Shown: positions 5,441-44,945 of the stretch, piece after piece
How positions within the stretch are numbered: the first letter of the stretch is position 1
Layout: the number at the start of each line of letters is the position of its first letter
Assembly (NCBI GenBank): GCA_002372275.1
Contig: DFFP01000009.1
Location: 5,833-69,832, forward strand
Direction: 5' to 3'
Source of the DNA: Alphaproteobacteria bacterium UBA3773
Lineage (GTDB): Bacteria > Pseudomonadota > Alphaproteobacteria > RF32 > CAG-239
DNA: 64,000 nt
Notes under the pieces: model-generated
Seen by the model: the letters and a program-made list of their open reading frames with translations, nothing else
Told to the model about the DNA's origin: nothing
Databases searched by the model: none
Made by a program: the position numbers and the translations under genes

Positions 5441-5787
5441 AAATGCCATTATGAGCATTTTTTTATCCTCGAGCCCTTTCGGGTTCGATTTCCACGGTAC
5501 AACATCAATAAACAAAAAAAAACACTCTTTGGGTGTTTCTTGTTTATTGGAGCAGACAACGGGAATATGTAGCTAAAGCTACTCGCTAATCAAAAATCTA
5601 AATTCGTTGCGGGCGTTTGCACACTTCCTTACTCATTAAAATTTTTGATCCTCTTGCGGTAAAAAATGCCATCTCGGGCATTTTTTATCCTCGAGCCCTT
5701 TCGGGTTCGATTTCCACTGTACAACATCAATAAACAAAAAAAACACCCTTTGGGTGTTCTTTGTTTATTGGAGCAGACAACGGGAAT
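5441..5787. repeat. Two-copy imperfect direct repeat (about 125 bp per copy, period 221 bp). It contains terminator hairpins and the last 19 nt of tRNA-Gly.
   Basis: 5441..5566 aligns with 5661..5787 at about 93% identity. Copy 2 continues into the intact tRNA. Copy 1 ends at ...tggagcagacaacgggaat and then diverges. Confidence 0.85.
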
Positions 5788-5842
5788 CGAACCCGCATTA
5801 AAAGCTTGGGAAGCTCTCATTCTACCATTGAATTATGTCTGC
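5769..5842 (-). tRNA. tRNA-Gly (anticodon CCC)
   Basis: Minus-strand read GCAGACATAATTCAATGGTAGAATGAGAGCTTCCCAAGCTTTTAATGCGGGTTCGATTCCCGTTGTCTGCTCCA. It has a 7-bp acceptor stem, a D-arm, anticodon loop TTCCCAA, a T-arm GGTTCGATTCC and a CCA end. Confidence 0.9.
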
Positions 5843-5892: not shown

Positions 5893-6537
5893 TTATATGA
5901 GCTTTTCTGTTTTAAAAGCAAATGATATTTTTCCGATGATTTTTAATTTTTTGAGACTGCAGGTTGTGCTTTGATACTTTGCGTTGTCTAAAATAACGGC
6001 ACACTCGGATGAGGATATTTGTTGCAGGCGGCGGACATGCCAGCCGTTTGGTAGCTCAATGAGATATAAGCCGTCTGAAGTTAATGAGTTAACAGATGTG
6101 TCAAGAAAAACATAATCGCCGTCTTTTAAGGTAGGAAACATGGAATCTCCCGTGATGCGAAACATCTTTGTTGTTTGAGCAGGGGCTGACGAAAAATTAG
6201 AAAAATCGGATAAAGGAATTGATAGGTAACCTGAAGTTTTTGCTTCAAAATTTTTTGTGGGGGCGAGAGAAATCAATTCAATCAAGGCTGATGATTTTGG
6301 ATCGGTATTATATGTCGATTTTGGAAGAATAATGTCGGTCAATTCTTGTTCTTCGACATCTAAAAGTTCAGCTAACTTGCGGCGCTCGCTTTCCGGTAAA
6401 CGTAAGGGAGAGCCTTTGTTAATAAATTGGTGTAAGTATGCCTCGTTTTTGCCGATGGCAAGCGAAAGAGAACGATAATTTTTGTTCTTTTCTTTGATTA
6501 ATGCGTCAATATGCGCGCGGATTTGGTCGATGTTCAT
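5893..6537 (-). CDS. Prophage CI/LexA-like repressor (HTH plus S24 peptidase)
   Basis: C-terminal GDSMFPTLKDGDYVFLD S24 autoprotease motif. The likely start is MNIDQIRAHID at 6537. Transcribed divergently from the early genes. Confidence 0.8.
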   Translation of the reverse strand: MNIDQIRAHIDALIKEKNKNYRSLSLAIGKNEAYLHQFINKGSPLRLPESERRKLAELLDVEEQELTDIILPKSTYNTDPKSSALIELISLAPTKNFEAKTSGYLSIPLSDFSNFSSAPAQTTKMFRITGDSMFPTLKDGDYVFLDTSVNSLTSDGLYLIELPNGWHVRRLQQISSSECAVILDNAKYQSTTCSLKKLKIIGKISFAFKTEKLI

Positions 6538-6665
6538 GAAGATTCTCCGGTTTTTATGAAGATATAAGATATCTATCATAAAAAAAATATCTGTGCAAAT
6601 AATAAATTTCTTATTGTATTTATAATAAAAATATCATATTTATCCAGGACGAAAGGAGAAAATAT

Positions 6666-7064
6666 ATGATAAAAACTAATTTTGAACGATTATATCATAA
6701 AGGATGGCTAAAATCTAAAACAAGTATGTGGAGAGAAACAGACAGATTTACGGCCGGACAGAAATTATATTTTTCTTATGAAAAAAGTCAGGATTATTCT
6801 GTGGGAGTTATCGATCCGACAAGGTTATATGTTAATTCTTTTTCGATTGAAAAGGGTTTAGGAAATTTTTCGCAAGAAAAAGAAAAATTTATAAAAGCAT
6901 ACGGCGCCGTTCCGATTGGACTTAGAAAAATCATAGAGAATTTGATTTTGAAAAATATTGCCCCAGCTTTGAACGATAAAAAAGAAGTGGCGCAATACAA
7001 AGAAAAACTTTGTTTGGCACTTGATTGTTTGGTTTGTCATTATGTCAGAGGAAATCAAAAATGA
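6666..7064 (+). CDS. Phage early protein, hypothetical
   Basis: First ORF transcribed divergently from the repressor. RBS aggagaa upstream. Confidence 0.5.
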   Translation: MIKTNFERLYHKGWLKSKTSMWRETDRFTAGQKLYFSYEKSQDYSVGVIDPTRLYVNSFSIEKGLGNFSQEKEKFIKAYGAVPIGLRKIIENLILKNIAPALNDKKEVAQYKEKLCLALDCLVCHYVRGNQK

Positions 7065-7366
7065 TTGAAGAAGAAATGGTGAGACGCCAAACGGAATGTA
7101 TACGAATTTGCAGGCTATTTCGGGCTGTGTTGCAGAAAGCCGTTTCTGATGCGTTTGGGCCGAAATGCAGGCTTTCAAAAAGGAGAAAACTGAAAGAAAA
7201 AGCACGCGCATTTTTAAGTGATAATGAAGATTTTAGGCTGATTTGTAAGATGGCTTTTGTGGATCCGATGTGGATTTTAAGCGTTGTTGAACAGCCAAAA
7301 TTAAAAAATAAAGAAAAATATGAGCAAATACTTTTAAATATAAAGGATAATTATTATTATTTTTAA
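7061..7366 (+). CDS. Phage early protein, hypothetical (basic; possible regulator)
   Basis: ATGA start/stop overlap with the preceding ORF. Lys/Arg-rich, 102 aa. Confidence 0.45.
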   Translation: MIEEEMVRRQTECIRICRLFRAVLQKAVSDAFGPKCRLSKRRKLKEKARAFLSDNEDFRLICKMAFVDPMWILSVVEQPKLKNKEKYEQILLNIKDNYYYF

Positions 7367-7458
7367 GATATTTCATATATTTAAGCCTGTTTTCCACAGG
7401 GGATTGACACGTATAATAAAAATCTTATATATATAAGACAATTGATGAAAAAAACGGA

Positions 7459-7488
7459 AACGCAACGAATTATGTTGCGTTTTTTTTG
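7459..7488 (+). terminator. Rho-independent terminator after the early genes
   Basis: Stem aacgcaac/gttgcgtt, then a T7 run. Confidence 0.6.
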
Positions 7489-7632
7489 ATGTTTAATTGG
7501 GTTGCGGCAGAAATGTCTGTTTAACGGGTTTGGGTGGGAAAACGAGAAAATCGGGCTTGAATGTGAGGATATGAATTTGGAAAGAAAAAATGTTGTTCAA
7601 ATAACAATTTTTTAAAAAATGAAAGGAAAATA

Positions 7633-8358
7633 ATGGTTGGAATTTTGGATATTTGTCGTTCGGCTGCGGATATAACGGCATCGCAGAGGCCGGATGATTT
7701 GTTTAGAGTTGATACGCAACATAATGCGATTTTTTTATCAATCGCCGAAAATGAATTGGAGAGTTTACTCAGGTATGGAAATTGGCCCGAATTGATTAAA
7801 GAAGGGCGTTTTAGAACACAGCCGAACAAAACTTATTATGCATTTGATCAAATTACTGCGGATTTCTATTGTTTAACCCATAATACGCTCTTTATTAAAG
7901 ACAGAAATGAACGCGTTTTAGGCTCATTCACGTATGAAGAAGCGATGCAAAGAAAGTATTTAAAAACTTCTTCGGGGGAACTTGAATTTAGAATTGAAAA
8001 TAACGGTTTGCGCTTTTTAAAAGCACCTCTGGCGAATTTGAGTGTTGTGTTTTTGTATCGCTCAAATACGATTTGCTATGACGCGGTGACAGGCGAAGAA
8101 AAATGCAAATTGGAAAAAAATGATGATGTGCCTGTGTTTGATCAGTATATCGTTAAACTCGGTATTATATGGAGATGGCTTAAGCGTAGCGGGATGGATT
8201 ATGCCCAGGAATATAACGATTATCAAAATGAACTGAAAAGAAAATATGCACTAACGCTTGAAACACATGATATTTCGCTTGTTAGCGGATATGAACCTTC
8301 AAGATTTAACAATACAATCAATTTATGTGTCGGTGGAGACGGGTATGACAGAAGTTGA
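7633..8358 (+). CDS. Phage protein, hypothetical (241 aa)
   Basis: ORF overlapping the portal-like gene start by 14 nt. No recognisable motif. Confidence 0.5.
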   Translation: MVGILDICRSAADITASQRPDDLFRVDTQHNAIFLSIAENELESLLRYGNWPELIKEGRFRTQPNKTYYAFDQITADFYCLTHNTLFIKDRNERVLGSFTYEEAMQRKYLKTSSGELEFRIENNGLRFLKAPLANLSVVFLYRSNTICYDAVTGEEKCKLEKNDDVPVFDQYIVKLGIIWRWLKRSGMDYAQEYNDYQNELKRKYALTLETHDISLVSGYEPSRFNNTINLCVGGDGYDRS

Positions 8359-10117
8359 AATTTGGATTGAAAAAATACGTCGATCGGAAAAAAAATATGC
8401 TGATTATTTTGATAAAATTAAAACGATACGTCGCTATTATAAAAATGAAAATTCAAGAAATAAACAAAATATTTTTTGGGCAACGATTGAAACCTTAAAA
8501 CCGTTCTTGTATTTTAAGGAACCGAAAGTATTTATCAAGCAAAAAGAAAAATCAGGGCCGCTTGCGCTTTCGGTCGCTTGTCGAATTTTAGAAAAAGCTT
8601 TGGCTTGGAATATGGAACAAATCGATTTTGACAGCGTGATGAAATATGTCAGAAACGACTTTTTGCTTTTTGGATTTGGGGCCGCTTTTGAAAGGTATGT
8701 GCCGACATTTAAGACGTGTCACGTCAATGAAAACGGACATGATGTTTCACTACAACTCTTAAAAGATGAAAAAATTGAAACGGTTTATATCCCTCCGGAA
8801 GATTTTTTGGCCGATACGGAAAAAGTCAATGTGTGGGAAGATTGCGGGTGGATTGCACGTAAAATCGTTATGAGTTTGTCTGAAATTCGCGCCCAATTCG
8901 GTGAAGAAATTTTTCAAAAAATTGTGCAAAAAAACGGTGCCGACAAAATGGACTCCATGACGGTTTATGAAATATGGGATAAGAAAAGTAAGCGTATTTT
9001 ATATTTGGCTTTGGAATTTGCGTTTGAATTTTTGAAAATCAAAGAAGATGCGTTCGGACTTGAAGGATTTTGGGCCTTTCCGAAACCGTTGTTTGGGACG
9101 CTCGCAAATGACGGGATTATTCCGACACCTGATTTTGACCAATTAAAGCCTCTGCTTGATGAACTCTCCGGTGTGACGGGACGTATGCAACTTTTGATGC
9201 AAGCCATGAAGGTCACAGGGGCATATGACAGCAGTTTTCCGGAACTTGCAAATATCTTAAATAAAGATGTGACATTGGTTGCATTGTCGGATTTTGAGCG
9301 TTTAAAAGAAAACGGCGGTATTAAAGGAGTTGTGGATTTCGCCCCGATTGAACAATATGTGTCGGCGTTAACTGTTTTGGCATCAAGACGCGAGGATATC
9401 ATGACACAAATTTATGATATGACCGGGGTCAGCGATATTATGAGAGGAATGTCGGATAAAACGGAAACGGCAACCGCAGTTGAGAAAAAAACGAACTTCG
9501 GGACACTTCGCAATCAGGACAGACAAAATGATATGGTGCGCTTGATGACAAACCTCTTTCAGATGAAAGCTGAAATGATTTGCAGTTGTTTTGATGCAGA
9601 GCACTTGAAAATGTTTGCAGATTCTGAAACGCCTGATGATGTTGTTCAAACAGCTATTCTAATCTTAAAAGAACAAAAATTACGCGGAATGATTTTGGGA
9701 GTGGAAACAGATACGGCATTTGCGCAAAGTCATATCTTAGAGCAAACGCAAAAAAGTATTTTAGCTGTGCATGGCTTGATTAAAGAGGCATTTGAAATGG
9801 TTTCGATTCAACCTTCGCTGTTGGGGCTGTATCGACAGATGATTTCGACACTTGTTTCGACGATGCCTTGCGCCAGACAATATGAGCCCGTGATGGAGAA
9901 AGTATTTGAACAAATTGATGAAGCTCTTCGTTTGCCGAGTCCGCCTACGCAAGATATTTTGGCCTTGCAGCTCAATCAGCAAAAACAAAAAATGTGGCTC
10001 GACTATGATATTAAAACTAAAGAACTCGCTTTGAAAAAAGAAGAGGTTGAAATCAAAAAAACGGAAGCACTTCATAAGGTTTGTGCCAAAGAACATACCT
10101 TAAAAACAAAGAAGTGA
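8345..10117 (+). CDS. Putative portal (head-tail connector) protein
   Basis: Size (about 590 aa), a position in the head module, and a coiled-coil-like C-terminal tail. This is an architectural assignment only. Start placed at the ATG at 8345. Confidence 0.45.
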   Translation: MTEVEIWIEKIRRSEKKYADYFDKIKTIRRYYKNENSRNKQNIFWATIETLKPFLYFKEPKVFIKQKEKSGPLALSVACRILEKALAWNMEQIDFDSVMKYVRNDFLLFGFGAAFERYVPTFKTCHVNENGHDVSLQLLKDEKIETVYIPPEDFLADTEKVNVWEDCGWIARKIVMSLSEIRAQFGEEIFQKIVQKNGADKMDSMTVYEIWDKKSKRILYLALEFAFEFLKIKEDAFGLEGFWAFPKPLFGTLANDGIIPTPDFDQLKPLLDELSGVTGRMQLLMQAMKVTGAYDSSFPELANILNKDVTLVALSDFERLKENGGIKGVVDFAPIEQYVSALTVLASRREDIMTQIYDMTGVSDIMRGMSDKTETATAVEKKTNFGTLRNQDRQNDMVRLMTNLFQMKAEMICSCFDAEHLKMFADSETPDDVVQTAILILKEQKLRGMILGVETDTAFAQSHILEQTQKSILAVHGLIKEAFEMVSIQPSLLGLYRQMISTLVSTMPCARQYEPVMEKVFEQIDEALRLPSPPTQDILALQLNQQKQKMWLDYDIKTKELALKKEEVEIKKTEALHKVCAKEHTLKTKK

Positions 10118-10140
10118 TGTATGTTTGCAAAGGAATAAAA

Positions 10141-11700
10141 ATGATTAAAAAAAATGTCAACAGGTCTGTGAAATCTTTAGACTTTATTTTGCCGGCGCCT
10201 GTTGGAGGACTCAATAAAAAAGATCCGCTCTCGGATATGCCCCAAAATGATGCCGTGGTGATGGAAAACTATATTCCGATGAACAGTGTGGTCCAATTAA
10301 GGCCCGGATATGAAAAATATGTGTCGCTCGGAGATTTTGTAAATGGCAAAAAAGTGGAAACTCTTTGTTCGTGTCATATGGAAAATAAAAGTAAGATGAT
10401 AGCTGTTTATGACGGATATGCTTATGATGTATCAACAGCCTCAGCGCGCCGATTTGAAAATGTTCAATTTAGCCGTAGCTTATGTCAAACGGTTTGTTAT
10501 CGGGGGCATCTTTATTTTATGAATGGTGCGGATACGCCAAAAGTTTATTATATTGATGACCAGCAAGCAGAACATTTTGAGGATTGGGGATTTGTGGGAG
10601 AGGGGCTTCCTTCGCACAATATTGTTAGTGCCGGCGTCAGTCATGAATTTTTGTGGTTTATTGAACAAAATTCAACGCACGCTTGGGTTTCGGAAGTTGC
10701 CGGAAATATCGCAGGGACACTCAAACTGTTTGATGTTGCGCAAATCTTAAAATGGGGCGGACATTTGATGGCAGTTTTTAACTGGACAATCGACGGCGGG
10801 GAAGGTTTGGATGATTATACCTGTTTAATCAGTAGCGAAGGTGAACTGCTTATCTATCAGGGATATAACCCAAATGATGCAAATCATTTTACATTGATGG
10901 GGTCTTATAAATTTTCAAAGCCGATCGGATATCAATGTGTTCTTCCTTTGAAGGGTGATGTCATTATCATTTCAGAAGACGGTTATTTGCCGCTTTCGCA
11001 AGTCTTAAGCGCCAATAATACGCCCGGAACATTGGCCGCGTTTTCGGATAAAATAAATAATCTTGTGATGGAACGTGCGGCGCTTTATAAAAAAAATGAC
11101 GGGTGGCAAGGAATCATCTACCCAAAAAAAGGGTATGGCATATTTAATGTGCCCGTCAGTAACACATTTGAGCAACATGTAGTTAATCTGCAAACAGGGG
11201 CATGGTGCGTTTTTAAGAATATTCGCTCATTTTGTTGGTGTCTTTATGATGAAAATTTGTTTTTCGGAACGGACTGCGGTATTTGTCGCTTTGATAAGGG
11301 GTATTCGGATAACGGTTTGGCAATTGAAGGACGCATTGAGCAAGCTTATACGAATTTGGGCACAAATGCTTTAAAAAAAATCACACTGATCAAACCACGA
11401 GTGAAGGCAACAGGTAATTTTTTATTGGTCATCGGGACGGATATGGATTTTGAAGACAGAAAAATTTCCGATTCCGTTCAAATGGAATTTGAAAATAAAA
11501 AATTTGCAGTTTGGAATCAGGCGGTTTGGAATGCGGATTTTTGGCAGTCGTCAGGTAAGGGAAAAATACAGGGAAAATGGATTGCAAATTCGGCAACCGG
11601 ATTTAAGGCAAGTGTTGTGTTTGAAACAAAAACAAATGCCAATGATATTCAATGGTATGAAACAGCTCTTCGGATGGAAACGGGAACGGGAATTTTGTAG
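10141..11700 (+). CDS. Phage structural protein, function unknown (about 520 aa)
   Basis: Large ORF between the portal-like gene and the GroES-like gene. No recognisable motif. It could be a tail-tube or nozzle-type protein. Confidence 0.4.
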   Translation: MIKKNVNRSVKSLDFILPAPVGGLNKKDPLSDMPQNDAVVMENYIPMNSVVQLRPGYEKYVSLGDFVNGKKVETLCSCHMENKSKMIAVYDGYAYDVSTASARRFENVQFSRSLCQTVCYRGHLYFMNGADTPKVYYIDDQQAEHFEDWGFVGEGLPSHNIVSAGVSHEFLWFIEQNSTHAWVSEVAGNIAGTLKLFDVAQILKWGGHLMAVFNWTIDGGEGLDDYTCLISSEGELLIYQGYNPNDANHFTLMGSYKFSKPIGYQCVLPLKGDVIIISEDGYLPLSQVLSANNTPGTLAAFSDKINNLVMERAALYKKNDGWQGIIYPKKGYGIFNVPVSNTFEQHVVNLQTGAWCVFKNIRSFCWCLYDENLFFGTDCGICRFDKGYSDNGLAIEGRIEQAYTNLGTNALKKITLIKPRVKATGNFLLVIGTDMDFEDRKISDSVQMEFENKKFAVWNQAVWNADFWQSSGKGKIQGKWIANSATGFKASVVFETKTNANDIQWYETALRMETGTGIL

Positions 11701-11951: not shown

Positions 11952-12184
11952 TGGAAAAAACATTGAAAGAAATATTGGAAAAAATGATGAGGAAAAAAAC
12001 AGTTCGAGAAAGAATTTGTGCTATGCTCATCGGAGAGGCTCAAAACGGGAATTTTAAGGCCTTGGACGCTATTAGAGATATTATAGGCGATAAAGATAAA
12101 TCGCATCGCGATGAGCCTGAGCCGGTGACAAATATCAAAATCGAGGTGATCGATGGGACGCATTATCAAAATCAAGATTGCTAA
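11948..12184 (+). CDS. Small phage protein, possibly the small terminase subunit
   Basis: 78-aa ORF immediately upstream of and overlapping TerL. The assignment rests on position only. Confidence 0.3.
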   Translation: MMEKTLKEILEKMMRKKTVRERICAMLIGEAQNGNFKALDAIRDIIGDKDKSHRDEPEPVTNIKIEVIDGTHYQNQDC

Positions 12185-13472
12185 GCCTTTTTTGCCGCTG
12201 ATCAGCACAAACAAAAGAATTAAATTGTATTGGGGCGGGCGCGGCGGCGGAAAGAGCTATGCATTTGCCGATGCACTTTTGCTTAAAGGGTTGGAGAAAA
12301 AACTTTTAATTGCATGCGTGCGTGAAATTCAAGACACAATTAAAGATTCCGTTCATCGCTTACTTTCAGACCGAATTGAATTTTATGACTTAAAAGAATA
12401 TGAAGTCAAAGAAAGCGAAATTGTAAATACCTTAAACGGGACACGCTTTATTTTTAAGGGTCTGCGCAATCAGGATGCACATAAAATTAAATCGCTTGAA
12501 GGCGTGGATATTGTTTGGATTGAGGAAGCCCAGACCATTACAAAAAAATCGTGGGAGATTTTGTCGCCGACCATTCGAAAAGACGGGTCGGAAATTTGGA
12601 TTTCGATGAACAGAGAAGAAGAAAATGATCCGCTTTGGGTGCTTTTAGGCAGCCATCAAGATGAGCGTACGCTCATTGAAAAAGTCAACTTTTATGATAA
12701 CCCTTTTTGTCCTGAAGAACTGAAACTGCAAGCCAAAGAATGTCTGGCTCATGATGAAAGCACCTATCGGCATATTTGGCTCGGAGAGCCGCTTTCTCAA
12801 GGGGCACACAAGTTGATTGATGCCGGACTTGTGAAACATGCAATGCAACCGAAAATTTCGGAAAGTACCTCGCCACTTATCATCGGGCTTGATGTGGCGC
12901 GTTTCGGAGATGACCAAACTGTTTTTTGCTTGCGCAAAGGGCGAAAATGTTTGTCTTTTTTATCTTTTGAAAAAAAAGATAATGTCGAAGTGGCAAATAT
13001 TGCGACAAATTTGATTGAAACAAAACGTCCCTTACGTATTTTTTTGGATGCAGGCGGTGTGGGCGGCGGTGTGTTTGATATCTTAAAAGACAGAGGTTTT
13101 AAGGATATCATAAGAGGTGTTAATTTCGGCTCTAAAGCGATTAATGAAGAGCGTTATGCCAACAGAAGAGCCGAAATGTGGGATCATCTGCGGCAATGGC
13201 TGACAGAAGAAGTCGAGTTGCCAAATAATGGTATGCTCTATGATGAATTGTGTACCGTGCGCAAAAAATATGATGCGCTTGGAAGACTCTTACTCGAAGA
13301 AAAAGAAGAAATAAAAAAAAGAATAGGGCGTTCGACCGATTGGGCAGATGCCCTCGCGTTGACTTTTGCAGAGCCTGTTTATGATAAAGGACACACCAGA
13401 TTTTATGGTAACGGGCAGGTTTGTTTGGAAGAAATGTTTCAGGCTTCAAATCAGCGTATGCCGGTGTGGTGA
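12153..13472 (+). CDS. Terminase large subunit
   Basis: Walker A YWGGRGGGKSYAFA, Walker B DIVWIEEAQ, and a C-terminal nuclease-like domain. Length 439 aa. Confidence 0.85.
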   Translation: MGRIIKIKIAKPFLPLISTNKRIKLYWGGRGGGKSYAFADALLLKGLEKKLLIACVREIQDTIKDSVHRLLSDRIEFYDLKEYEVKESEIVNTLNGTRFIFKGLRNQDAHKIKSLEGVDIVWIEEAQTITKKSWEILSPTIRKDGSEIWISMNREEENDPLWVLLGSHQDERTLIEKVNFYDNPFCPEELKLQAKECLAHDESTYRHIWLGEPLSQGAHKLIDAGLVKHAMQPKISESTSPLIIGLDVARFGDDQTVFCLRKGRKCLSFLSFEKKDNVEVANIATNLIETKRPLRIFLDAGGVGGGVFDILKDRGFKDIIRGVNFGSKAINEERYANRRAEMWDHLRQWLTEEVELPNNGMLYDELCTVRKKYDALGRLLLEEKEEIKKRIGRSTDWADALALTFAEPVYDKGHTRFYGNGQVCLEEMFQASNQRMPVW

Positions 13473-14555: not shown

Positions 14556-15539
14556 ATGACAGTCAATACAAATTATGATGCGATTTTTACAACAACAATT
14601 GAAAATCGCTCAAAAAAACTGGCCGATAATGTAACAAAAAATAATGCCTTGTTGCAAAGATTATCGGCAAAAGATAAAATCAGAACCGTAGACGGCGGCT
14701 CGAAAATTTTGGAAGAATTGGAGTATGGCAACGGTGATCTTGTATGGTATTCGGGATTTGATACAATTTCGTACAGCGGTCCGGAGCTCTTCTCGGCAGC
14801 CGAATATGCTTTGAAACTTTGTGCTGTTCCGGTAGCCGTTTCGGGTGAAGAAATGCTTAAAAACGCCGGCACTGAACGGATGATCGATTTGTTTGAAAAA
14901 CGTATTCAAAATGCCGAAAAAACAATGGCAAATAAAATTTCGGAAGCTCTTTATTCTGACGGCACAGGCAGCTCCGGTAAGGAAATCGGCGGTTTAAAAC
15001 TTTTGGTGGCGGATTCTCCTTCAACAGGAACAGTCGGTGGGATTAACCGTGCAACCACCGGAAACGAATTTTGGCGCAATCAATCAAGCGTTATTTCTTC
15101 TGCTGCCGGCGCACTTTCATCATCAACCATCTTAAAAAAAATGAATGATGTGTATTTGGCTTGTTCAAGAGGAACAGATAAGCCCGATTTGATTGTGACG
15201 GACGATTATTTATATGATATGTTTGAAAGTGCTTTGCAACCATCACAACGCTTTTGTGACCCGAAACTTGCCGACGCCGGATTTCAATGCTTGAAATATA
15301 AAGGCGCTGATGTGATTTTTGACGGTGGACAGGGCGGAAGTTGTCCTTCAAAGCATATGTATTTCTTAAATACGAATTATCTCTATTTAAGACCGCACAA
15401 AGATCGTAACTTTAAGGTTATCGGTGGCGAAAGACTTTCGATTAACTCTGATGCCATTTACAAAATCATCGGCTGGGCAGGAAATTTAACTATGTCTAAT
15501 GCTGCGCTTCAAGGTGTTCTCGTCGATTACATCGCTTAA
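14556..15539 (+). CDS. Major capsid protein
   Basis: 327 aa. Position after the scaffold gene, with a composition typical of HK97-fold coat proteins. Followed by a strongly structured repeat. Confidence 0.65.
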   Translation: MTVNTNYDAIFTTTIENRSKKLADNVTKNNALLQRLSAKDKIRTVDGGSKILEELEYGNGDLVWYSGFDTISYSGPELFSAAEYALKLCAVPVAVSGEEMLKNAGTERMIDLFEKRIQNAEKTMANKISEALYSDGTGSSGKEIGGLKLLVADSPSTGTVGGINRATTGNEFWRNQSSVISSAAGALSSSTILKKMNDVYLACSRGTDKPDLIVTDDYLYDMFESALQPSQRFCDPKLADAGFQCLKYKGADVIFDGGQGGSCPSKHMYFLNTNYLYLRPHKDRNFKVIGGERLSINSDAIYKIIGWAGNLTMSNAALQGVLVDYIA

Positions 15540-15873: not shown

Positions 15874-16896
15874 ATGGCAAGAATGGATGAACAAACATAT
15901 AAAATCATACGTGGTATGAAAACAATTCAAAGACAGCACCCTCAAAAAGGGGAGAGTAAGTGGTATTATTTGGATCCGCGGGGTGCAACAAGAATAGCCG
16001 ATATGGGGGTGATAGACGTTGAAAGTGAGTATGCGCCTAACCCTTATGCAAGAGAAATTTTAATAGATGATATGAAACGCCATGAAGAAGATTATTATAT
16101 TTGGCGGACAAAAGGTGATGAAAAAGTAAGGGCCAGTCATGAAGAGCGTGAAGGAAAAGTTTATAATAGAAATTTGCCGCCTGATGGGGGTAATCCGGGA
16201 GAAGAACATAACTGCAGGTGTTGGGAAGAGGAATTTAAGTTTGAGAAGATGAAAAATGTTGATATGATTGATCTATTGGAAGAAATTGGTGCAGAATTAT
16301 CAGATGATGAGTTATATGACCGAATGTGGGAGAATATTAAAAGATTTGAAGATATTAAAACGTATCCATACCTTGACACAAAAGGATTAATTACAATTGG
16401 TGCCGGTGCAAATGTAAACAATTTGGATGTTTTTTTGAGTTTAAATTTGACAGTCAACGGATTTTCGGCAACAAGAGAACAAAAGTTAGAAGCATATAAA
16501 CAGTTGAAATGGTTGAGTGAACAAAAAGATGAGAAAGGAATGTATCTATATTATAATAGAAGAGCAAAATTTTTTGAAAAAGAAACAAATGTCCGTTTAC
16601 CTGATGTAGAAATACGGCAATTAGCACAAAGGCATATGACAAGTGATTTAAAACATTTGCGGCAAGAATTTGAAAGTTTTGACGAATTTCCTTTACCGTT
16701 AAAAGAAATATTACTGGATATTCAATATAATGTCGCAGGTGGATTGAGTGAAAAAAAATGGCCGAAGTTATACAGAGCTATACGTCAAAAAGATATGTTA
16801 GGCAAAGAAGGAATTGCAGAAAATGTGAATAGGCCGGATGTCGGAAAAAGTCGTAATGATTGGGCAAAAGGAATGGCGCGTTCAATCAGATTCTAA
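15874..16896 (+). CDS. MuF-motif minor head protein fused to a GH24 phage-lysozyme domain
   Basis: N-terminal region carries DEKVRASHEEREGKVY...PGEEHNCRCW, the C-terminal signature of the Phage_Mu_F/gp7 domain. The C-terminal region carries FEDIKTYPYLDTKGLITIGAGA, matching the T4-lysozyme E...D...TIGxG motif. Confidence 0.6.
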   Translation: MARMDEQTYKIIRGMKTIQRQHPQKGESKWYYLDPRGATRIADMGVIDVESEYAPNPYAREILIDDMKRHEEDYYIWRTKGDEKVRASHEEREGKVYNRNLPPDGGNPGEEHNCRCWEEEFKFEKMKNVDMIDLLEEIGAELSDDELYDRMWENIKRFEDIKTYPYLDTKGLITIGAGANVNNLDVFLSLNLTVNGFSATREQKLEAYKQLKWLSEQKDEKGMYLYYNRRAKFFEKETNVRLPDVEIRQLAQRHMTSDLKHLRQEFESFDEFPLPLKEILLDIQYNVAGGLSEKKWPKLYRAIRQKDMLGKEGIAENVNRPDVGKSRNDWAKGMARSIRF

Positions 16897-20385: not shown

Positions 20386-21058
20386 AAGTTTAAACGTTTT
20401 CAGTAAGGTAGGTAATGGTTTGAAAGTTGGCTATAACAGTCAACCGACAAACGATTTTTTGAATTACTTAAATAATTATAATACTTCAAATGTGGATCAT
20501 ACCTTAAACAATTTAACAAGCTGGGCATCAAGGGCCAGCGATAATTTGCAAAATATGGGCGGGTATACATTTCAGATTGACGGCTCGGAAGATTTGAAAA
20601 ATAATATCACAAATGCAATGTATCAAAATTATTTAAGTAAACTTTTGCCGCAATATGAAGCCGAGCAAAATGATTTGCAAACAAGGCTCTTAAATCAGGG
20701 ATTGGGGGTGAATACTGCCGCCTATCAAAATGCGATGAATAATTTGGTATCGGCTCAAAACGGGGCCTTAAATGATGCGATTTCAGAGGCAGTTAATGCC
20801 GGAAATACGGCATATAACAATGATATTCAAAATCAAATAGCTATTGGAAATTTTCAAAATAATGCGGCGCAAAATTATATCAATTTATTGCTTTCGGCGC
20901 TCGAAAATTCGCTCAGCTCTTATGATGTGGCACAAAATAAATATGAGGCCGGAAATAATTTATCGGCAGCGCAAAGCAAAGCGCAAAATCAATCGGTTCA
21001 AAATCAATTAAAGGCTATTAAGATTGCTGCGGATACGGCAAAATCTTTGTGGAGCTAA
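20378..21058 (+). CDS. Asn/Gln-rich phage tail-associated protein
   Basis: Low-complexity N/Q/A-rich 226-aa ORF immediately upstream of the tail-collar fibre gene. Confidence 0.4.
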   Translation: MSKSLNVFSKVGNGLKVGYNSQPTNDFLNYLNNYNTSNVDHTLNNLTSWASRASDNLQNMGGYTFQIDGSEDLKNNITNAMYQNYLSKLLPQYEAEQNDLQTRLLNQGLGVNTAAYQNAMNNLVSAQNGALNDAISEAVNAGNTAYNNDIQNQIAIGNFQNNAAQNYINLLLSALENSLSSYDVAQNKYEAGNNLSAAQSKAQNQSVQNQLKAIKIAADTAKSLWS

Positions 21059-21069
21059 AGGAGGATAAA

Positions 21070-21828
21070 ATGGCTTTTGACAGTGAGGGTAATTTTACAC
21101 GTTTGCATAATTGGGAAAATGATAGATTAAACGATATTGCAATTATTGCAGACAGACACGATGAAGAAGATAACGGCTTTGCACAAGGGTTAAATGAGTG
21201 TTTTTTAAGAGATGGTCGTGTGAGCCTTTCAGGTTCGCTTAAAATGGGAGATCATCAGATTAAAAATTTGGCACCGGCAACTGTTTCAACAGATGCCGTG
21301 AACAAGGCTCAGCTTGAAAATGCATCATCCAATGTGACTGAGGCTTTAACAATTTTGCTCAATAAACTTTTTAAGATCGGCGATATCAAAGCCTCAACAA
21401 GGGCAGCTAATCACGATCACTGGTTTTTGTGTAACGGGCAGGCCATCTCTCGAACAGCGTATTCACAATTGTTTGCACTTATCGGAACAAATTTTGGGGC
21501 AGGTGACGGGACAACAACATTTAATTTGCCGGATTATAGAGGAAAATTTTTGCGCGGCCTTGGCGGGGATTCTGAAGCTGATATTTATACAACCCAAGCC
21601 GAGGGACTACCTAATATTACGGGTTCAGCTTATGTTTATTCGAGAGTGAGCGGTGAGGGCGCTTTTGAAGGTAGCAATAATCAGGCTGGCGGTATTGATA
21701 ATAATGGTTCAGGTAATAAAACTCTTTCATTTGATGCCTCGCGTTCATCAGCGATTTACGGAGCATCAGAGCATGTGACGCCCATCAACCAGGCCGTCAA
21801 TTATTTTATAAAAGTTTTGGAGGAATAA
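21070..21828 (+). CDS. Tail fibre protein with a phage tail-collar domain
   Basis: TTFNLPDYRGKFLRGLG matches the tail-collar motif (FxLPDLRGRF). RBS aaggagg before the ATG at 21070. Confidence 0.75.
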   Translation: MAFDSEGNFTRLHNWENDRLNDIAIIADRHDEEDNGFAQGLNECFLRDGRVSLSGSLKMGDHQIKNLAPATVSTDAVNKAQLENASSNVTEALTILLNKLFKIGDIKASTRAANHDHWFLCNGQAISRTAYSQLFALIGTNFGAGDGTTTFNLPDYRGKFLRGLGGDSEADIYTTQAEGLPNITGSAYVYSRVSGEGAFEGSNNQAGGIDNNGSGNKTLSFDASRSSAIYGASEHVTPINQAVNYFIKVLEE

Positions 21829-30951: not shown

Positions 30952-31809
30952 TTAACGATATTTTATCGAAAATGTGTTTTTACCTTCGGTGACGGCCGTT
31001 GCTTCATCAACACGATAGATGCGGCGTTTGGATCCATCGGCCATGAATGAACCTAAGAAATTTCCGTCTCCATCATATTTTTTATAGTCACCATTTGCTA
31101 AATACTTGTAGGAATAAGTCTTTTTGCCGTTTTCATCCCATATTTCTATTGGATTTCCGTTATTATCATACCCAATATAATATTCATAAGTTACGTTAGT
31201 ATTTCTGTTCTTTATCATGCTTTGACATTTTTGTATATCACCGCGACATTTGACTTGAATATGTTCAGGAAAACCCCAATTATTAGAATCATTACCATTA
31301 ATAAAACGTTCTATCGTATAATTCATATTATCAGATGCGGTTATAATTAATGTATGGGAGTTCGTCATTCCTAAAGGCATATATACTGTTTGTTCAGAAG
31401 TATTAGGAGAAACTTCAATGGTTCCGAAATTATTATCCCAAATTACAGGCAAATAGTTGCCCCACGTGGTGTGAACAAAGGTACTTGGAATTTTGAGTAT
31501 ACCATCACTGGTTCCCCAACCCATAGTAAATCCAACTGTAGCTCCCGTAATTCCTTCATTAATAATGAGATTTTTTACCAGCATTCCTTTTTTTTGCATA
31601 TATTCAAAAAAATCGTAACCTCCACCTCCGTTCGCTCGTGCTCCTGTTATATCACCGGTGCCGGAAAAGGTCATAGTATAAGTTTCCGAATCATATTCAT
31701 AAGTGCAAGTCCCGTGACATTCTGATCCGGTATATTTTTCTGCCCATGTATTTGCTGTCAATATGCTGTAACATAAAGAACATGATGCCAATAAAATAAA
31801 CTTTTTCAT
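30952..31809 (-). CDS. Secreted protein, paralog of 18454..19176
   Basis: Signal peptide. GSECHGTCTYEYDSETY N-terminal motif and C-terminal KRRIYRVDEA...KNTFSIKYR. Confidence 0.7.
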   Translation of the reverse strand: MKKFILLASCSLCYSILTANTWAEKYTGSECHGTCTYEYDSETYTMTFSGTGDITGARANGGGGYDFFEYMQKKGMLVKNLIINEGITGATVGFTMGWGTSDGILKIPSTFVHTTWGNYLPVIWDNNFGTIEVSPNTSEQTVYMPLGMTNSHTLIITASDNMNYTIERFINGNDSNNWGFPEHIQVKCRGDIQKCQSMIKNRNTNVTYEYYIGYDNNGNPIEIWDENGKKTYSYKYLANGDYKKYDGDGNFLGSFMADGSKRRIYRVDEATAVTEGKNTFSIKYR

Positions 31810-41725: not shown

Positions 41726-41886
41726 AAAAAATATATTTCAAAAAAATGCCAGACCTTAATAGATAAGCGGACTTGTGCGTGTGAAAAAACTTTTAAAAAA
41801 CCGCACCGTTTGATTAAAAGATGCGTTCTTTATACACGAAAAATTTAATTTTTCAAGCTTTTTATGATTGAAAGATCATAAATTTT

Positions 41887-42627
41887 TCAGTATGTGACTT
41901 TTGCAAAATAAAGCCCGCATGCCGGTGCCGTGACGCCGGCCTCGGCGCGTTTTTTGAGTTTTAAGATTTTTTCAACGTCTTGCGGGGTTAAATGTCCGTC
42001 GCCGACCATTTTTAAGGTGCCGACCATATTTCGAACCTGATGATATAAAAACGATTTGGCTTCCGTTTTAAAAATTATTTCATCACCCTCTTTTGTGATC
42101 TCGAGCTTGTCGAGCGTTTTTAAGGGAGATTTTGCTTGGCAACCTGCCCCTCGAAAAGAGCTGAAATCGTGATAGCCGATGAGGTATTTTGCGCCCTCGA
42201 TCATTTTTTGAACATCTAAAGGGTAGTTCACATGCCATACTCTGTTTTCCAGCAAAACAGAAGGGGCACGACGGTTTAAAATGCGGTAGATATAACTTCG
42301 TTTTAAGGCCGAAAAACGTGCGTTAAAATCAGGGCTGACCTGCTCGACCTCAATCACATTGACGGGGGCATTTTTTTCTCTGAGTTTGGCGTTAAAGGCC
42401 TCTCTGATATGGTATAAATCCATATTCAAGGTCGCATCAAAGTGCGCCACCTGCGCAAGCGCATGCACGCCGGCATCCGTTCGGCCGGCAGCCGTCATCA
42501 AGGCCTTTTGGTGCGAAAAAGCAAAAAGTGCTTCTTCTAAATCTTGCTGAACACTTTCACCCACCTCTTGACGCTGCCAACCGACGAGATTTGTGCCGTC
42601 GTATTCTATGTTAATTTTGTATCGCAT
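41887..42627 (-). CDS. truA: tRNA pseudouridine(38-40) synthase TruA
   Basis: MRYKINIEYDGTNLVGWQRQ N-terminus, with the catalytic Asp and RTDAGVHA. Start placed at the ATG at 42627. Confidence 0.85.
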   Translation of the reverse strand: MRYKINIEYDGTNLVGWQRQEVGESVQQDLEEALFAFSHQKALMTAAGRTDAGVHALAQVAHFDATLNMDLYHIREAFNAKLREKNAPVNVIEVEQVSPDFNARFSALKRSYIYRILNRRAPSVLLENRVWHVNYPLDVQKMIEGAKYLIGYHDFSSFRGAGCQAKSPLKTLDKLEITKEGDEIIFKTEAKSFLYHQVRNMVGTLKMVGDGHLTPQDVEKILKLKKRAEAGVTAPACGLYFAKVTY

Positions 42628-42917
42628 TTTCTTTATTCTAAATTTTAATGTATCATTGATAATTGATATTTGGCAAAAAAGCAAGAAGATATCCAAAAAA
42701 ACTTGACTGATTTGTAAAAAAATATTATACTGAAATCAATAAAAAGTATTTATGTTAATTGTTTGGTTTATTAGTAGTCTGTTTTTTGGGTTTTCTCAAA
42801 GAAGAGCTGGTATGTGCTAAATGATTGATTTTAATATAACATCCTTGTCCTGGATGATAATTTATTTAGCTCATACAAAGGACAATTGTATGAGTACACC
42901 TTATTAAATTTTTTTTT

Positions 42918-43166
42918 ATGGAAGCTGTAATTTTTTACGTTGTCTATTTTGCTCTGTTGTGTCTTGGTTATTGCTTAGTAAGTAAAACATATAAGATCAA
43001 ACAGAACTGGTTGAGAAGCACTCTTCGGATTATAGGTATAATTATAAACATAATTTGCTACATCTTTGCATTTTATTTTATGATAGAACCTGATGGTTGT
43101 TATTCCTGCATGATGAGTGGTTTTATTTTGTTTGGTATGACTTTCTTGTATGGAAGCATGGTATAA
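42918..43166 (+). CDS. Small membrane protein (82 aa, 2 transmembrane segments) inside a 619-bp insertion
   Basis: Hydrophobic ORF followed by its own terminator at about 43190..43240. Confidence 0.4.
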   Translation: MEAVIFYVVYFALLCLGYCLVSKTYKIKQNWLRSTLRIIGIIINIICYIFAFYFMIEPDGCYSCMMSGFILFGMTFLYGSMV

Positions 43167-43246
43167 GCAGAATAATTTTACCCAACGAACTAAAAAATAA
43201 CCCTCGATAGCTTAAAACTATCAGGGGTTATTTTTTTTAGTTATTT

Positions 43247-43296
43247 TCAACCGACGAGATTTGTGCCGTCATATTCAATCGTTAGCTTAAAACGTG
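43247..43296 (-). pseudogene. Displaced duplicate of the truA 5' end (start codon plus 16 codons)
   Basis: Minus-strand atgacacgttttaagctaacgattgaatatgacggcacaaatctcgtcggttg translates to MTRFKLTIEYDGTNLVG, matching MRYKINIEYDGTNLVG of the intact truA. The DNA is about 94% identical over 33 bp. Confidence 0.7.
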
Positions 43297-43326
43297 TCAT
43301 ATGATATGAAAACCGTGAGAAAAGTT

Positions 43327-44340
43327 TTAAGCGGCCTTAACAAAAGATTGTGCCGAGCCTAAAAACCCGAGTTTACGCTCGATTTCCCAAATGACTTTTA
43401 AGGCCTCTAACGCGCGCTCACCCGTGACGCGTGGTGTGGTCCTGCCGCAGACGCAATCAATAAAGTGTTTTTGTTCTGAAAACAGAGGTTGAGCCGAGGG
43501 GATGAATAAGTCTTCGGATGTGCCTTTCAGGCCATAGTTCATCCATTCGGGCAAGTTTTCTTTGTTGACGTAGTTAGATCTGCCTTGCCAACAAACTTTA
43601 ATGCTTTGATTGATGAAATCCATATCCATATAGTTTTCATCTGTGGTGACGGTTAGGGTGCGAACGCGCGATTGTGTGATTCGGCTGGCCGTTAAGTTGG
43701 CGGTCACACCATTTTCAAACTGAAGAAGTGCTGAAATATAATCTTTGCCTTCGGGCTTATCAGCAGTTTTAACGGACATGGCTTCAACGTTAATGACTTT
43801 GGATTTAACAAGTGATTGAACCACTTCAACATCATGAATCATCAAATCCATTGCCACATCAACATCAGTAATTCTGCCGCTGGCCGCTGACATACGCTGG
43901 GTTGTGATTGAGCGGATTTTAGACGGATCATTCAAAATCTTGCTCATTTGTTCAACAGCCGGATTAAATTGTTCGATATGACCGACGAGCAAAACGGCAC
44001 CGCTCTTTTGAGCGGCATTAATCAATCTTTGGCACTCAATTTCTGTGGTGGCAAGCGGTTTTTCCATCAAACAATGAATGCCTTTATTTAAAAAGAATTC
44101 CCCCACATCCGCGTGCGTGACAGAGGTTGTCACAACGCTGACGGCATCAACATTTGAAGCCACTTCTTCAAGTGATGAAAAGGCTTTAATATGAAAAGTT
44201 TCAGCAGCACTTAAAGCAGCTTCCTTAATAACATCATAAACGCCGACGAGCTCAACACCCGGAACGGTTTGATATGTTTTGATGTGATTTTTTCCCATCA
44301 TACCTGCGCCGATAACGGCAACGCGAACATTATTTGTCAT
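43327..44340 (-). CDS. Gfo/Idh/MocA-family oxidoreductase
   Basis: N-terminal Rossmann motif VAVIGAGMMGKNH. 337 aa. Confidence 0.8.
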   Translation of the reverse strand: MTNNVRVAVIGAGMMGKNHIKTYQTVPGVELVGVYDVIKEAALSAAETFHIKAFSSLEEVASNVDAVSVVTTSVTHADVGEFFLNKGIHCLMEKPLATTEIECQRLINAAQKSGAVLLVGHIEQFNPAVEQMSKILNDPSKIRSITTQRMSAASGRITDVDVAMDLMIHDVEVVQSLVKSKVINVEAMSVKTADKPEGKDYISALLQFENGVTANLTASRITQSRVRTLTVTTDENYMDMDFINQSIKVCWQGRSNYVNKENLPEWMNYGLKGTSEDLFIPSAQPLFSEQKHFIDCVCGRTTPRVTGERALEALKVIWEIERKLGFLGSAQSFVKAA

Positions 44341-44516: not shown

Positions 44517-44945
44517 ATGTCCATATTATCGCCGTTTTTATTTGTTGTTCTTGCTTCTGCCGAAGTTTCGGGCTCTGAAGTCACCATTGTCGGTTCGGCC
44601 TCAACGCCGAGCGGAAAAGAAATTAAAGAAGAAATGACTTTGCCCTCTGATGATACATATGCTCCGTTTCCAAACGTGGTCAAAGAAAGTCCAAGTGCGC
44701 CAACAAAGACACCGACCTTAAATGTGCAACATCAAAATGAACCCTTAAAAGAAGTGAACGAGTGGTCAGAGCAAAACCCCAAACCTTTTTCTATTTCGCC
44801 CCAAAAACAAGAAAACGAAATCGAAAATACACTTTATGAAGGTGGGGATCGCATTTATGATGTTCAATCTTATCCGATTAAGGACATTCAAACCATCACG
44901 GAGCCAAACATTGATCCGACAATTACAAATTATCCGGCATATTAA
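44517..44945 (+). CDS. Secreted hypothetical protein (Pro/Ser/Thr-rich)
   Basis: Signal peptide. Low complexity. Confidence 0.4.
   Translation: MSILSPFLFVVLASAEVSGSEVTIVGSASTPSGKEIKEEMTLPSDDTYAPFPNVVKESPSAPTKTPTLNVQHQNEPLKEVNEWSEQNPKPFSISPQKQENEIENTLYEGGDRIYDVQSYPIKDIQTITEPNIDPTITNYPAY

Follow-up and report, generated by a model that had tools for sequence, protein, structure and literature searches.

Recombinase-less remnants that keep both attachment (att) sites, known as cis-mobilizable elements (CIMEs), are documented and common (PMC5704250). They arise by deletion from integrative and conjugative or integrative and mobilizable elements with an integrase acting on the same att sites, and they can move in cis once a second element has inserted beside them in tandem (accretion). 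Classical CIMEs are 1.2–13 kb long, and microCIMEs are 130–220 bp long (PMC7563491). Chromosomal islands of Streptococcus pyogenes (SpyCI) enter the first codons of mutL, the second gene of its operon, which is thus uncoupled from the upstream gene (PMC4689407, PMC3430984); in strain Manfredo, which carries a decayed SpyCI, an internal promoter keeps the downstream mutL expressed (PMC3430984). Here, we analyzed a small insert in the 5′ end of the tRNA pseudouridine synthase gene truA in a 64,000-nucleotide stretch (hereafter, the window) of Alphaproteobacteria bacterium UBA3773 (assembly GCA_002372275.1, contig DFFP01000009.1, positions 5,833 to 69,832). Integration into a protein-coding gene is also known for phage 21 and e14, a full prophage and element with integrase, which replace the 3′ end of icd in Escherichia coli, while IMEX elements use the host XerCD recombinases at dif.

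Like CIMEs and microCIMEs, the insert lies at one end of a conserved housekeeping gene between attL/attR-like direct repeats, lacks genes for integration or transfer, and carries tiny or no cargo; with its length of 670 bp, it falls between microCIMEs and classical CIMEs (PMC7563491). It differs from them in having no known cognate integrative and conjugative element, integrative and mobilizable element, or integrase for its core, in standing alone rather than in tandem, and in its host, which is an uncultured gut or rumen-type alphaproteobacterium and not a streptococcus. The composite islands described in PMC7563491 are located at gene 3′ ends, whereas the insert lies at the 5′ end of truA. 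The decayed SpyCI in which an internal promoter rescues mutL is a close functional analogue. SpyCI likewise lie in the first codons of a downstream gene; however, they are large, encode an integrase and phage-like functions, and are dynamically excised, whereas the 670-bp insert encodes no recombinase and gave no evidence of excision. Phage 21 and e14 differ in targeting the 3′ rather than the 5′ end and in having an integrase. IMEX elements are, like the insert, integrative DNA without a recombinase of its own, but the core of the insert is unlike dif by eye and lies inside a protein-coding gene, and a dif/Xer element was rejected on these grounds. Thus, the kind of object, an att-flanked remnant restoring its target gene, is known; new are the truA 5′ target, the group to which the host belongs, and the combination of a very small size with replacement of a gene start.

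The locus is very likely the product of a recent, lineage-specific insertion through one crossover in a 23-nt core, which replaced codons 1–9 of truA and split this gene from its upstream neighbor of the Gfo/Idh/MocA family. The intact truA (41887..42627, minus strand) encodes a protein of 246 aa, which was identified by the Pfam match PF01416 and by the equivalog model TIGR00071 (190 bits, above the cut-off of 142.85); its start at 42627 reads MRYKINIEYDGTNLVGW. The gene for the Gfo/Idh/MocA-family oxidoreductase (43327..44340, minus strand; PF01408, PF22725) is the conserved upstream neighbor of truA. Only 26 nt downstream of its stop codon begins a second, displaced truA start of 17 codons, MTRFKLTIEYDGTNLVG followed by TGA (43247..43300, minus strand), recognized by comparison with truA starts of relatives. 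The original prediction had already reported that the first 17 codons of truA exist twice, which was borne out by our analysis, although the displaced ATG is located at 43300..43298 and not at 43296. The TGA of this stub (43249..43247) spans the junction, TG being contributed by the core and A by the insert.

The exact 23-nt core common to truA and the stub, GACGGCACAAATCTCGTCGGTTG, encodes DGTNLVGW (truA codons 10–17). One copy is found on the truA side (attR-like, 42578..42600, minus strand; similarity runs on to 42609), and the identical second copy is found on the Gfo side (attL-like, 43248..43270, minus strand; similarity runs on to 43279). The wider repeat, 42578–42609 against 43248–43279, is 32 nt long with 94% identity and a start-to-start spacing of 670 bp. 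Identity between the copies is 23/23 in the core and drops abruptly upstream to 17/27 with a codon indel. When up to three mismatches were tolerated, the core was found only at these two places in the window, and no such pair appeared in 100 dinucleotide-preserving shuffles. Between the two truA starts lie 620 bp of unique DNA (42628..43247) that is absent from all relatives examined; its G+C content is 27.6%, compared with 41–46% for the flanking genes. The inserted unit comprises 670 bp, namely 647 new bases plus one core copy, and includes truA codons 1–9, ATGCGATACAAAATTAACATAGAATAC, translated as MRYKINIEY (42601..42627, minus strand; assigned from alignments with the stub and with relatives).

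The empty site expected by the original prediction, with a single truA start preceded by the stop region of the Gfo/Idh/MocA gene, was found in six related contigs from different samples (L001, L087, L088, L089, L090, and L093), whose TruA proteins belong to the same 90% cluster. In these relatives, the Gfo/Idh/MocA stop codon is followed after about 26–29 nt (29 nt in L001) by one truA. The contigs align to the window up to 43248 and resume at 42608 (42618 in L093); the overlap of the two alignment blocks is the repeat counted twice, amounting to 31 nt, or 41 nt for L093, where similarity extends slightly further than in the others. A three-way alignment shows the empty site to be composed of the left flank of the stub and the right flank of the intact gene. 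From 42608 downwards, truA of the empty-site relatives is 90.8–94.8% identical to the window at the nucleotide level. The six empty sites show a true insertion and not a chance similarity.

The polarity of the event is also evident from the relatives. The closest TruA in the large protein collection, P0001 from contig L001, is 98% identical to the window protein and starts with MTRFKLTVEYDG, like the stub. The ancestral-type start was present in four of the five TruA alleles of the 90% cluster, MRYKIN being restricted to the window allele, and relatives with 74–88% identity start with MTR[FY]K or MARYK, again like the stub. Thus, the MRYKINIEY start arrived with the insert, and the displaced copy is the original start of the gene, as had been proposed. 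The Gfo/Idh/MocA gene is located directly upstream of truA, with no insert, also in more distant relatives (TruA 75–88% identical); the spacing varies from 21 to 77 nt, and the adjacency holds in all relatives with the context read. Therefore, the insertion is the derived state. Two other contigs, L002 (Logan SRR873606) and L092 (ENA ERZ12302850 NODE_35, 190 kb), matched the window with 100% identity over both junctions. Among species-level genomes, the nearest are metagenome-assembled genomes (MAGs) of gut or rumen type, with TruA identity of at most 72%.

The stub has not decayed: it is 96% identical to the truA start of L001 and retains both the ATG and the reading frame, so the insertion event is recent. 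The gene that replaced it is chimeric, with codons 1–9 derived from the insert, codons 10–17 from the shared core, and the remainder from the host. The insert-borne codons share 17 of 27 positions with the ancestral start and differ from it in length by one codon; they resemble the starts of a clade of 246-aa TruA proteins (MRYKI[T/I]IEY), the corresponding stretch of contig L004 matching at 23 of 27 nt. Residues R2, K4, E8, Y9, G11, and T12, invariant in an alignment of 30 TruA sequences, are all present in the new start. Since every invariant N-terminal residue is retained, the chimeric TruA with its new N-terminus should be functional. Upstream of the true ATG, the truA frame remains open into the insert for a further 23 codons (42628..42696, minus strand; TTG at 42696), and in the public annotation of P0125 (265 aa), this gene is called from a start that lies farther upstream, within the insert. 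This call is probably too long, judging by the homologues, all of which start at the MRYK or MTRYK position.

DNA directly downstream of the core in the intact truA is of the host type, being identical to L001 and L093; it encodes WQRQEV, whereas the clade resembled by the insert-borne start has WQKQ. Both joints consequently fall within the same 23 nt, which argues for a single reciprocal crossover with a circle, in the pattern of attL and attR against attB. We suppose that a circular molecule, at least about 670 bp in size, underwent one reciprocal exchange with the chromosome inside the 23-nt truA stretch. The incoming circle would have carried its own truA-like codons 1–9 with their upstream region, then the core, and then unrelated DNA beginning with a terminator hairpin, a layout expected of an attP built for restoring the 5′ end of the target gene. 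The reconstructed attP junction reads ...ATAGAATAC-core-AAAATAACTAAAA..., and the isogenic attB reads ...ACGATTGAATAT-core-GCAGCGTCAAGAGG.... Such a crossover would strand the original start, now a stub of 17 codons, downstream of the Gfo/Idh/MocA gene and would supply truA with a new functional N-terminus. It would also place a bidirectional terminator between the two genes; co-transcription with the Gfo/Idh/MocA gene would then be lost, and truA would be transcribed from within the insert.

A hairpin corresponding to the terminator mentioned in the original prediction is indeed present. An intrinsic-terminator-like hairpin, consisting of an A-tract, a stem of about 20 bp, and a T-tract (43188..43242, with the inverted repeat at 43192–43236), begins a few bases beyond the end of the displaced stub and was recognized from the inverted repeat and folding. 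Strong folding was predicted for either strand, with −21.8 kcal/mol (z = −6.9) for the plus strand and −22.8 kcal/mol (z = −5.2) for the minus strand, and the structure should stop transcripts from both the Gfo/Idh/MocA gene and the open reading frame (ORF) described below. Rfam models gave only sub-threshold matches in the region, centered on the hairpin, e.g., ohsC with 24 bits, the gathering score being 50. A match of His_leader to the stub plus hairpin (43192..43307, minus strand; 31.6 bits, below the gathering score of 49; E = 0.006) is probably meaningless, as a short ORF followed by a terminator mimics a leader peptide with its attenuator.

The new promoter proposed for the AT-rich region amounts to weak consensus matches no more frequent than in shuffled sequences: seven sigma-70-like sites were counted in the region against an expectation of 4.3 (standard deviation of 1.9). 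Just upstream of the new truA ATG, two overlapping sigma-70-like sites were found on the minus strand (42635..42676), TTGCCA-18-TACATT at 42676–42647 and TTATCA-16-TAGAAT at 42662–42635, each matching 9 of 12 consensus positions. From their position, they are candidate replacement promoters for truA. The best promoter-like site of the insert, TTGACT-17-TATACT (42703..42731, plus strand), identified from a 10/12 consensus match, faces toward an 82-codon ORF.

This ORF (ORF82; 42918..43166, plus strand) is the only one of at least 40 aa wholly inside the insert. The frame is open, as reported, but its status as a gene is doubtful. Shuffling the insert 2000 times produced an ORF of at least 82 aa in 25 cases; the G+C contents at its three codon positions are 0.28, 0.31, and 0.35, and the GC1 > GC2 pattern of the four host genes compared is not seen. 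It was not called as a gene in the carrier contigs L002 and L092. The exact protein sequence was absent from a collection of 15 billion proteins, no homologue was found by a word search of 5.8 billion proteins or in viral contigs and genome contigs, and no family was assigned in Pfam, PHROGs, PADLOC, or NCBIfam. Two apparent matches were discarded: phmmer against 1.84 billion representatives returned one repetitive 1004-aa protein aligned to residues 54–76 only, which is low-complexity noise, and a 30-residue match in the metagenome contig L006 belongs to an unrelated contig without coherent ORFs and was rejected as chance. Hydropathy revealed two to three hydrophobic segments, and not clearly the two transmembrane segments proposed earlier. 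Compared with type I toxins of toxin–antitoxin systems, ORF82 is also hydrophobic, but it has 82 aa and two to three hydrophobic segments, whereas such toxins usually have fewer than 60 aa and one transmembrane segment. They are accompanied by an overlapping antisense RNA; as to RNA families, Rfam gave only the sub-threshold matches on the hairpin described above. Any role of the putative product would be a matter of conjecture.

As to the nature of the insert, the original prediction suggested a CIME-like element or a relic. This remains the best guess: that the insert is a decayed, att-flanked, recombinase-less integrative element, or a miniature derivative of one, seems to us evenly balanced between right and wrong. 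In accordance with the definition of CIMEs, the exact 23-nt repeat and the six empty-site contigs show flanking attL/attR-like sites whose recombination would regenerate attB, and functional genes for integration, excision, or transfer were not found. The layout of the insert also agrees with that of site-specific integrative elements aimed at gene ends. A recombinase gene beside an att site, characteristic of site-specific integrative elements, was also absent. If the insert is such an element, it is probably immobile on its own now.

The recombinase origin itself could not be substantiated, as neither an integrase nor a relative, a second copy, or an excised form of the insert was found, and a number of results weigh against this interpretation. 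As stated in the original prediction, no recombinase was encoded between 42601 and 43270 or in the neighboring genes for S1, TruA, Gfo/Idh/MocA, TrmB, and the XRE-family protein; no integrase or excisionase was detected among about 40 larger ORFs of the window scanned against Pfam or PHROGs. The dyad in the core is feeble (CGACG-N10-CGTCG, judged by eye). None of the protein, viral, genome, and metagenome collections searched contained a related element or a larger version of the insert, and the insert DNA had no match in phages or plasmids in the distant mode. The search for further copies, proposed earlier, returned none in the 92 fetched loci or in the rest of the window, except for the chance match in L006. 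The predicted excised-state TruA was absent from the collection by exact look-up. A second truA start was found in none of 80 truA loci from species-level genomes; weak second-start matches in L008 and L027 were due to chance, with no DNA repeat on inspection. Relatives of truA in viral contigs were confined to one contig, where the 5′ end of the gene faces away from the viral part, which is the wrong orientation for 5′ integration. Repeated use of truA as an attachment site is therefore not indicated. A single crossover of host homologous recombination, moreover, would leave exactly the same scar.

In addition, neither the reconstructed attP junction nor the hairpin sequence had a match in viral contigs, nor did a circular or excised form of the insert turn up; a degenerate truA-core pattern also had no match there, so these contigs contain no truA 5′ fragment. 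Our literature search on truA as an attB site returned nothing relevant, truA appearing as a typing marker.

Host homologous recombination is accordingly the explanation to be weighed against a recombinase-based origin. It would involve Campbell-type integration of a circularized fragment of the truA locus of a related bacterium, with no mobile element taking part; the fragment would have consisted of a divergent small gene with its terminator, intergenic promoters, and the first 50 nt of the donor truA. The resemblance of codons 1–9 to a real truA start of the 246-aa clade (23/27 nt in L004) speaks for this origin, as do the failure to find a recombinase or an element family and the fact that a piece of a real truA locus would bring a working promoter for free. 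A length of 23 nt is also roughly the shortest that supports RecA-dependent exchange in E. coli. However, a donor with the ORF82–truA arrangement was found in none of the collections searched, and every relative with the context read has the Gfo/Idh/MocA gene directly upstream of truA. Two rare steps would be needed, circularization of 670 bp and then a crossover within 23 nt, and perfect identity over these 23 nt would be unexpected, given that L003, L004, and L005 each differ at three to four of the 23 positions. We regard this origin as unlikely, though deserving serious attention. An active non-autonomous mini-element, moved in and out in trans by a recombinase from another part of the genome or from a helper, appears quite unlikely. 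In its favor, both core copies are intact and identical, the stub is undecayed, the unit is compact with a terminator at one end and a promoter plus start at the other, and a prophage-like region elsewhere in the window is evidence of mobile DNA in this genome. Against it, the insert is single-copy in the window and limited to one carrier lineage with 100% identical sequences, and no circular junction, excised allele, or helper was found. Its furthest version, which we consider very unlikely, would be a living recombinase-less micro-integrative element targeting the highly conserved DGTNLVGW stretch and moved in trans by an unlinked recombinase, a portable cassette of terminator, promoter, and start that would rewire the Gfo–truA pair, possibly reversibly, with ORF82 as its sole, orphan membrane cargo.

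Processes without a circle fit the junctions poorly. Homology-facilitated illegitimate recombination can place foreign DNA beside a short anchor, and a linear fragment could have entered in this manner, but the location of both joints in the same 23 nt would then be a coincidence of two independent events. A local duplication of the truA start with later divergence and an unrelated insertion, in turn, cannot yield a core with 0/23 changes beside a segment with 10/27 changes and a codon indel while the stub keeps 96% identity to L001; we regard these two routes together as highly improbable. The window was probably assembled from a metagenome, and the relatives are all MAGs or metagenome contigs, so an assembly artefact or chimera was also considered; it is practically negligible, as two independent data sets are 100% identical across both junctions and no chimera could create a unique sequence of 620 bp together with both junctions. 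An origin from a miniature inverted-repeat transposable element or an insertion sequence was rejected: no inverted repeat joins the insert ends, the duplication is 23–32 nt of gene sequence with a divergent extension rather than 2–10 bp, and the window contains a single copy. An integron cassette was rejected as well.

The prophage-like region extends from 5769 to about 24000 of the window, next to a tRNA-Gly(ccc) gene at 5769–5842. It encodes an S24/CI-like repressor (5893..6579), a tail protein (7633..8358), a portal protein (8258..10117), an amidase (10081..11700), a large terminase (12153..13472), a major head protein (14556..15539), a Mu-F-like protein (15874..16896), and a tail-collar protein (21049..21828). 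No integrase was recognized in this region among the scanned ORFs.

The two flanks of the insert differ in their divergence from relatives: the Gfo side (43248..43899) is 81–88% identical and the truA side (41884..42608) is 91–95% identical. In the window, the spacer between the Gfo/Idh/MocA gene and the truA start is similar to that of L089 and L090, but on the truA side, the similarity is to L001 and L093. Such a pattern suggests strain-level mosaicism through recombination around the site. An extra gene of 279–286 aa is located just upstream of the Gfo/Idh/MocA gene in L087 (8008..8847), L088, and L089; it has a signal-peptide-like N-terminus by eye and no Pfam family on record. It is absent from the corresponding site of the window (~44440), between an ORF of 142 aa (44517..44945) and the Gfo/Idh/MocA gene, but the window contains a paralogue with 35% identity at 30952..31809 on the minus strand. 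In L003, genes for an EcoRI-methylase-like protein and a GmrSD/HNH protein, a restriction/defence pair, follow truA (6041..8192), where the window has rpsA, encoding S1. Thus, the Gfo–truA neighborhood appears variable on both sides, as far as the compared contigs indicate.

For a specialist, the finding is tidy rather than surprising, and it opens no long-standing question. It provides a clean natural example of a tiny piece of foreign DNA entering the coding start of a housekeeping gene without harm, with the empty sites known. The insert swaps nine codons and would, by the reading of its terminator and promoter-like sites given above, sever truA from its former operon and supply it with new expression signals. 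If the recombinase-based origin is true, remnants of the CIME and microCIME type, catalogued mainly in streptococci, would extend to gut Alphaproteobacteria, and the 5′ end of truA would be a new target. Such scars can flag integration hot spots and explain the N-terminal mosaicism of conserved proteins.

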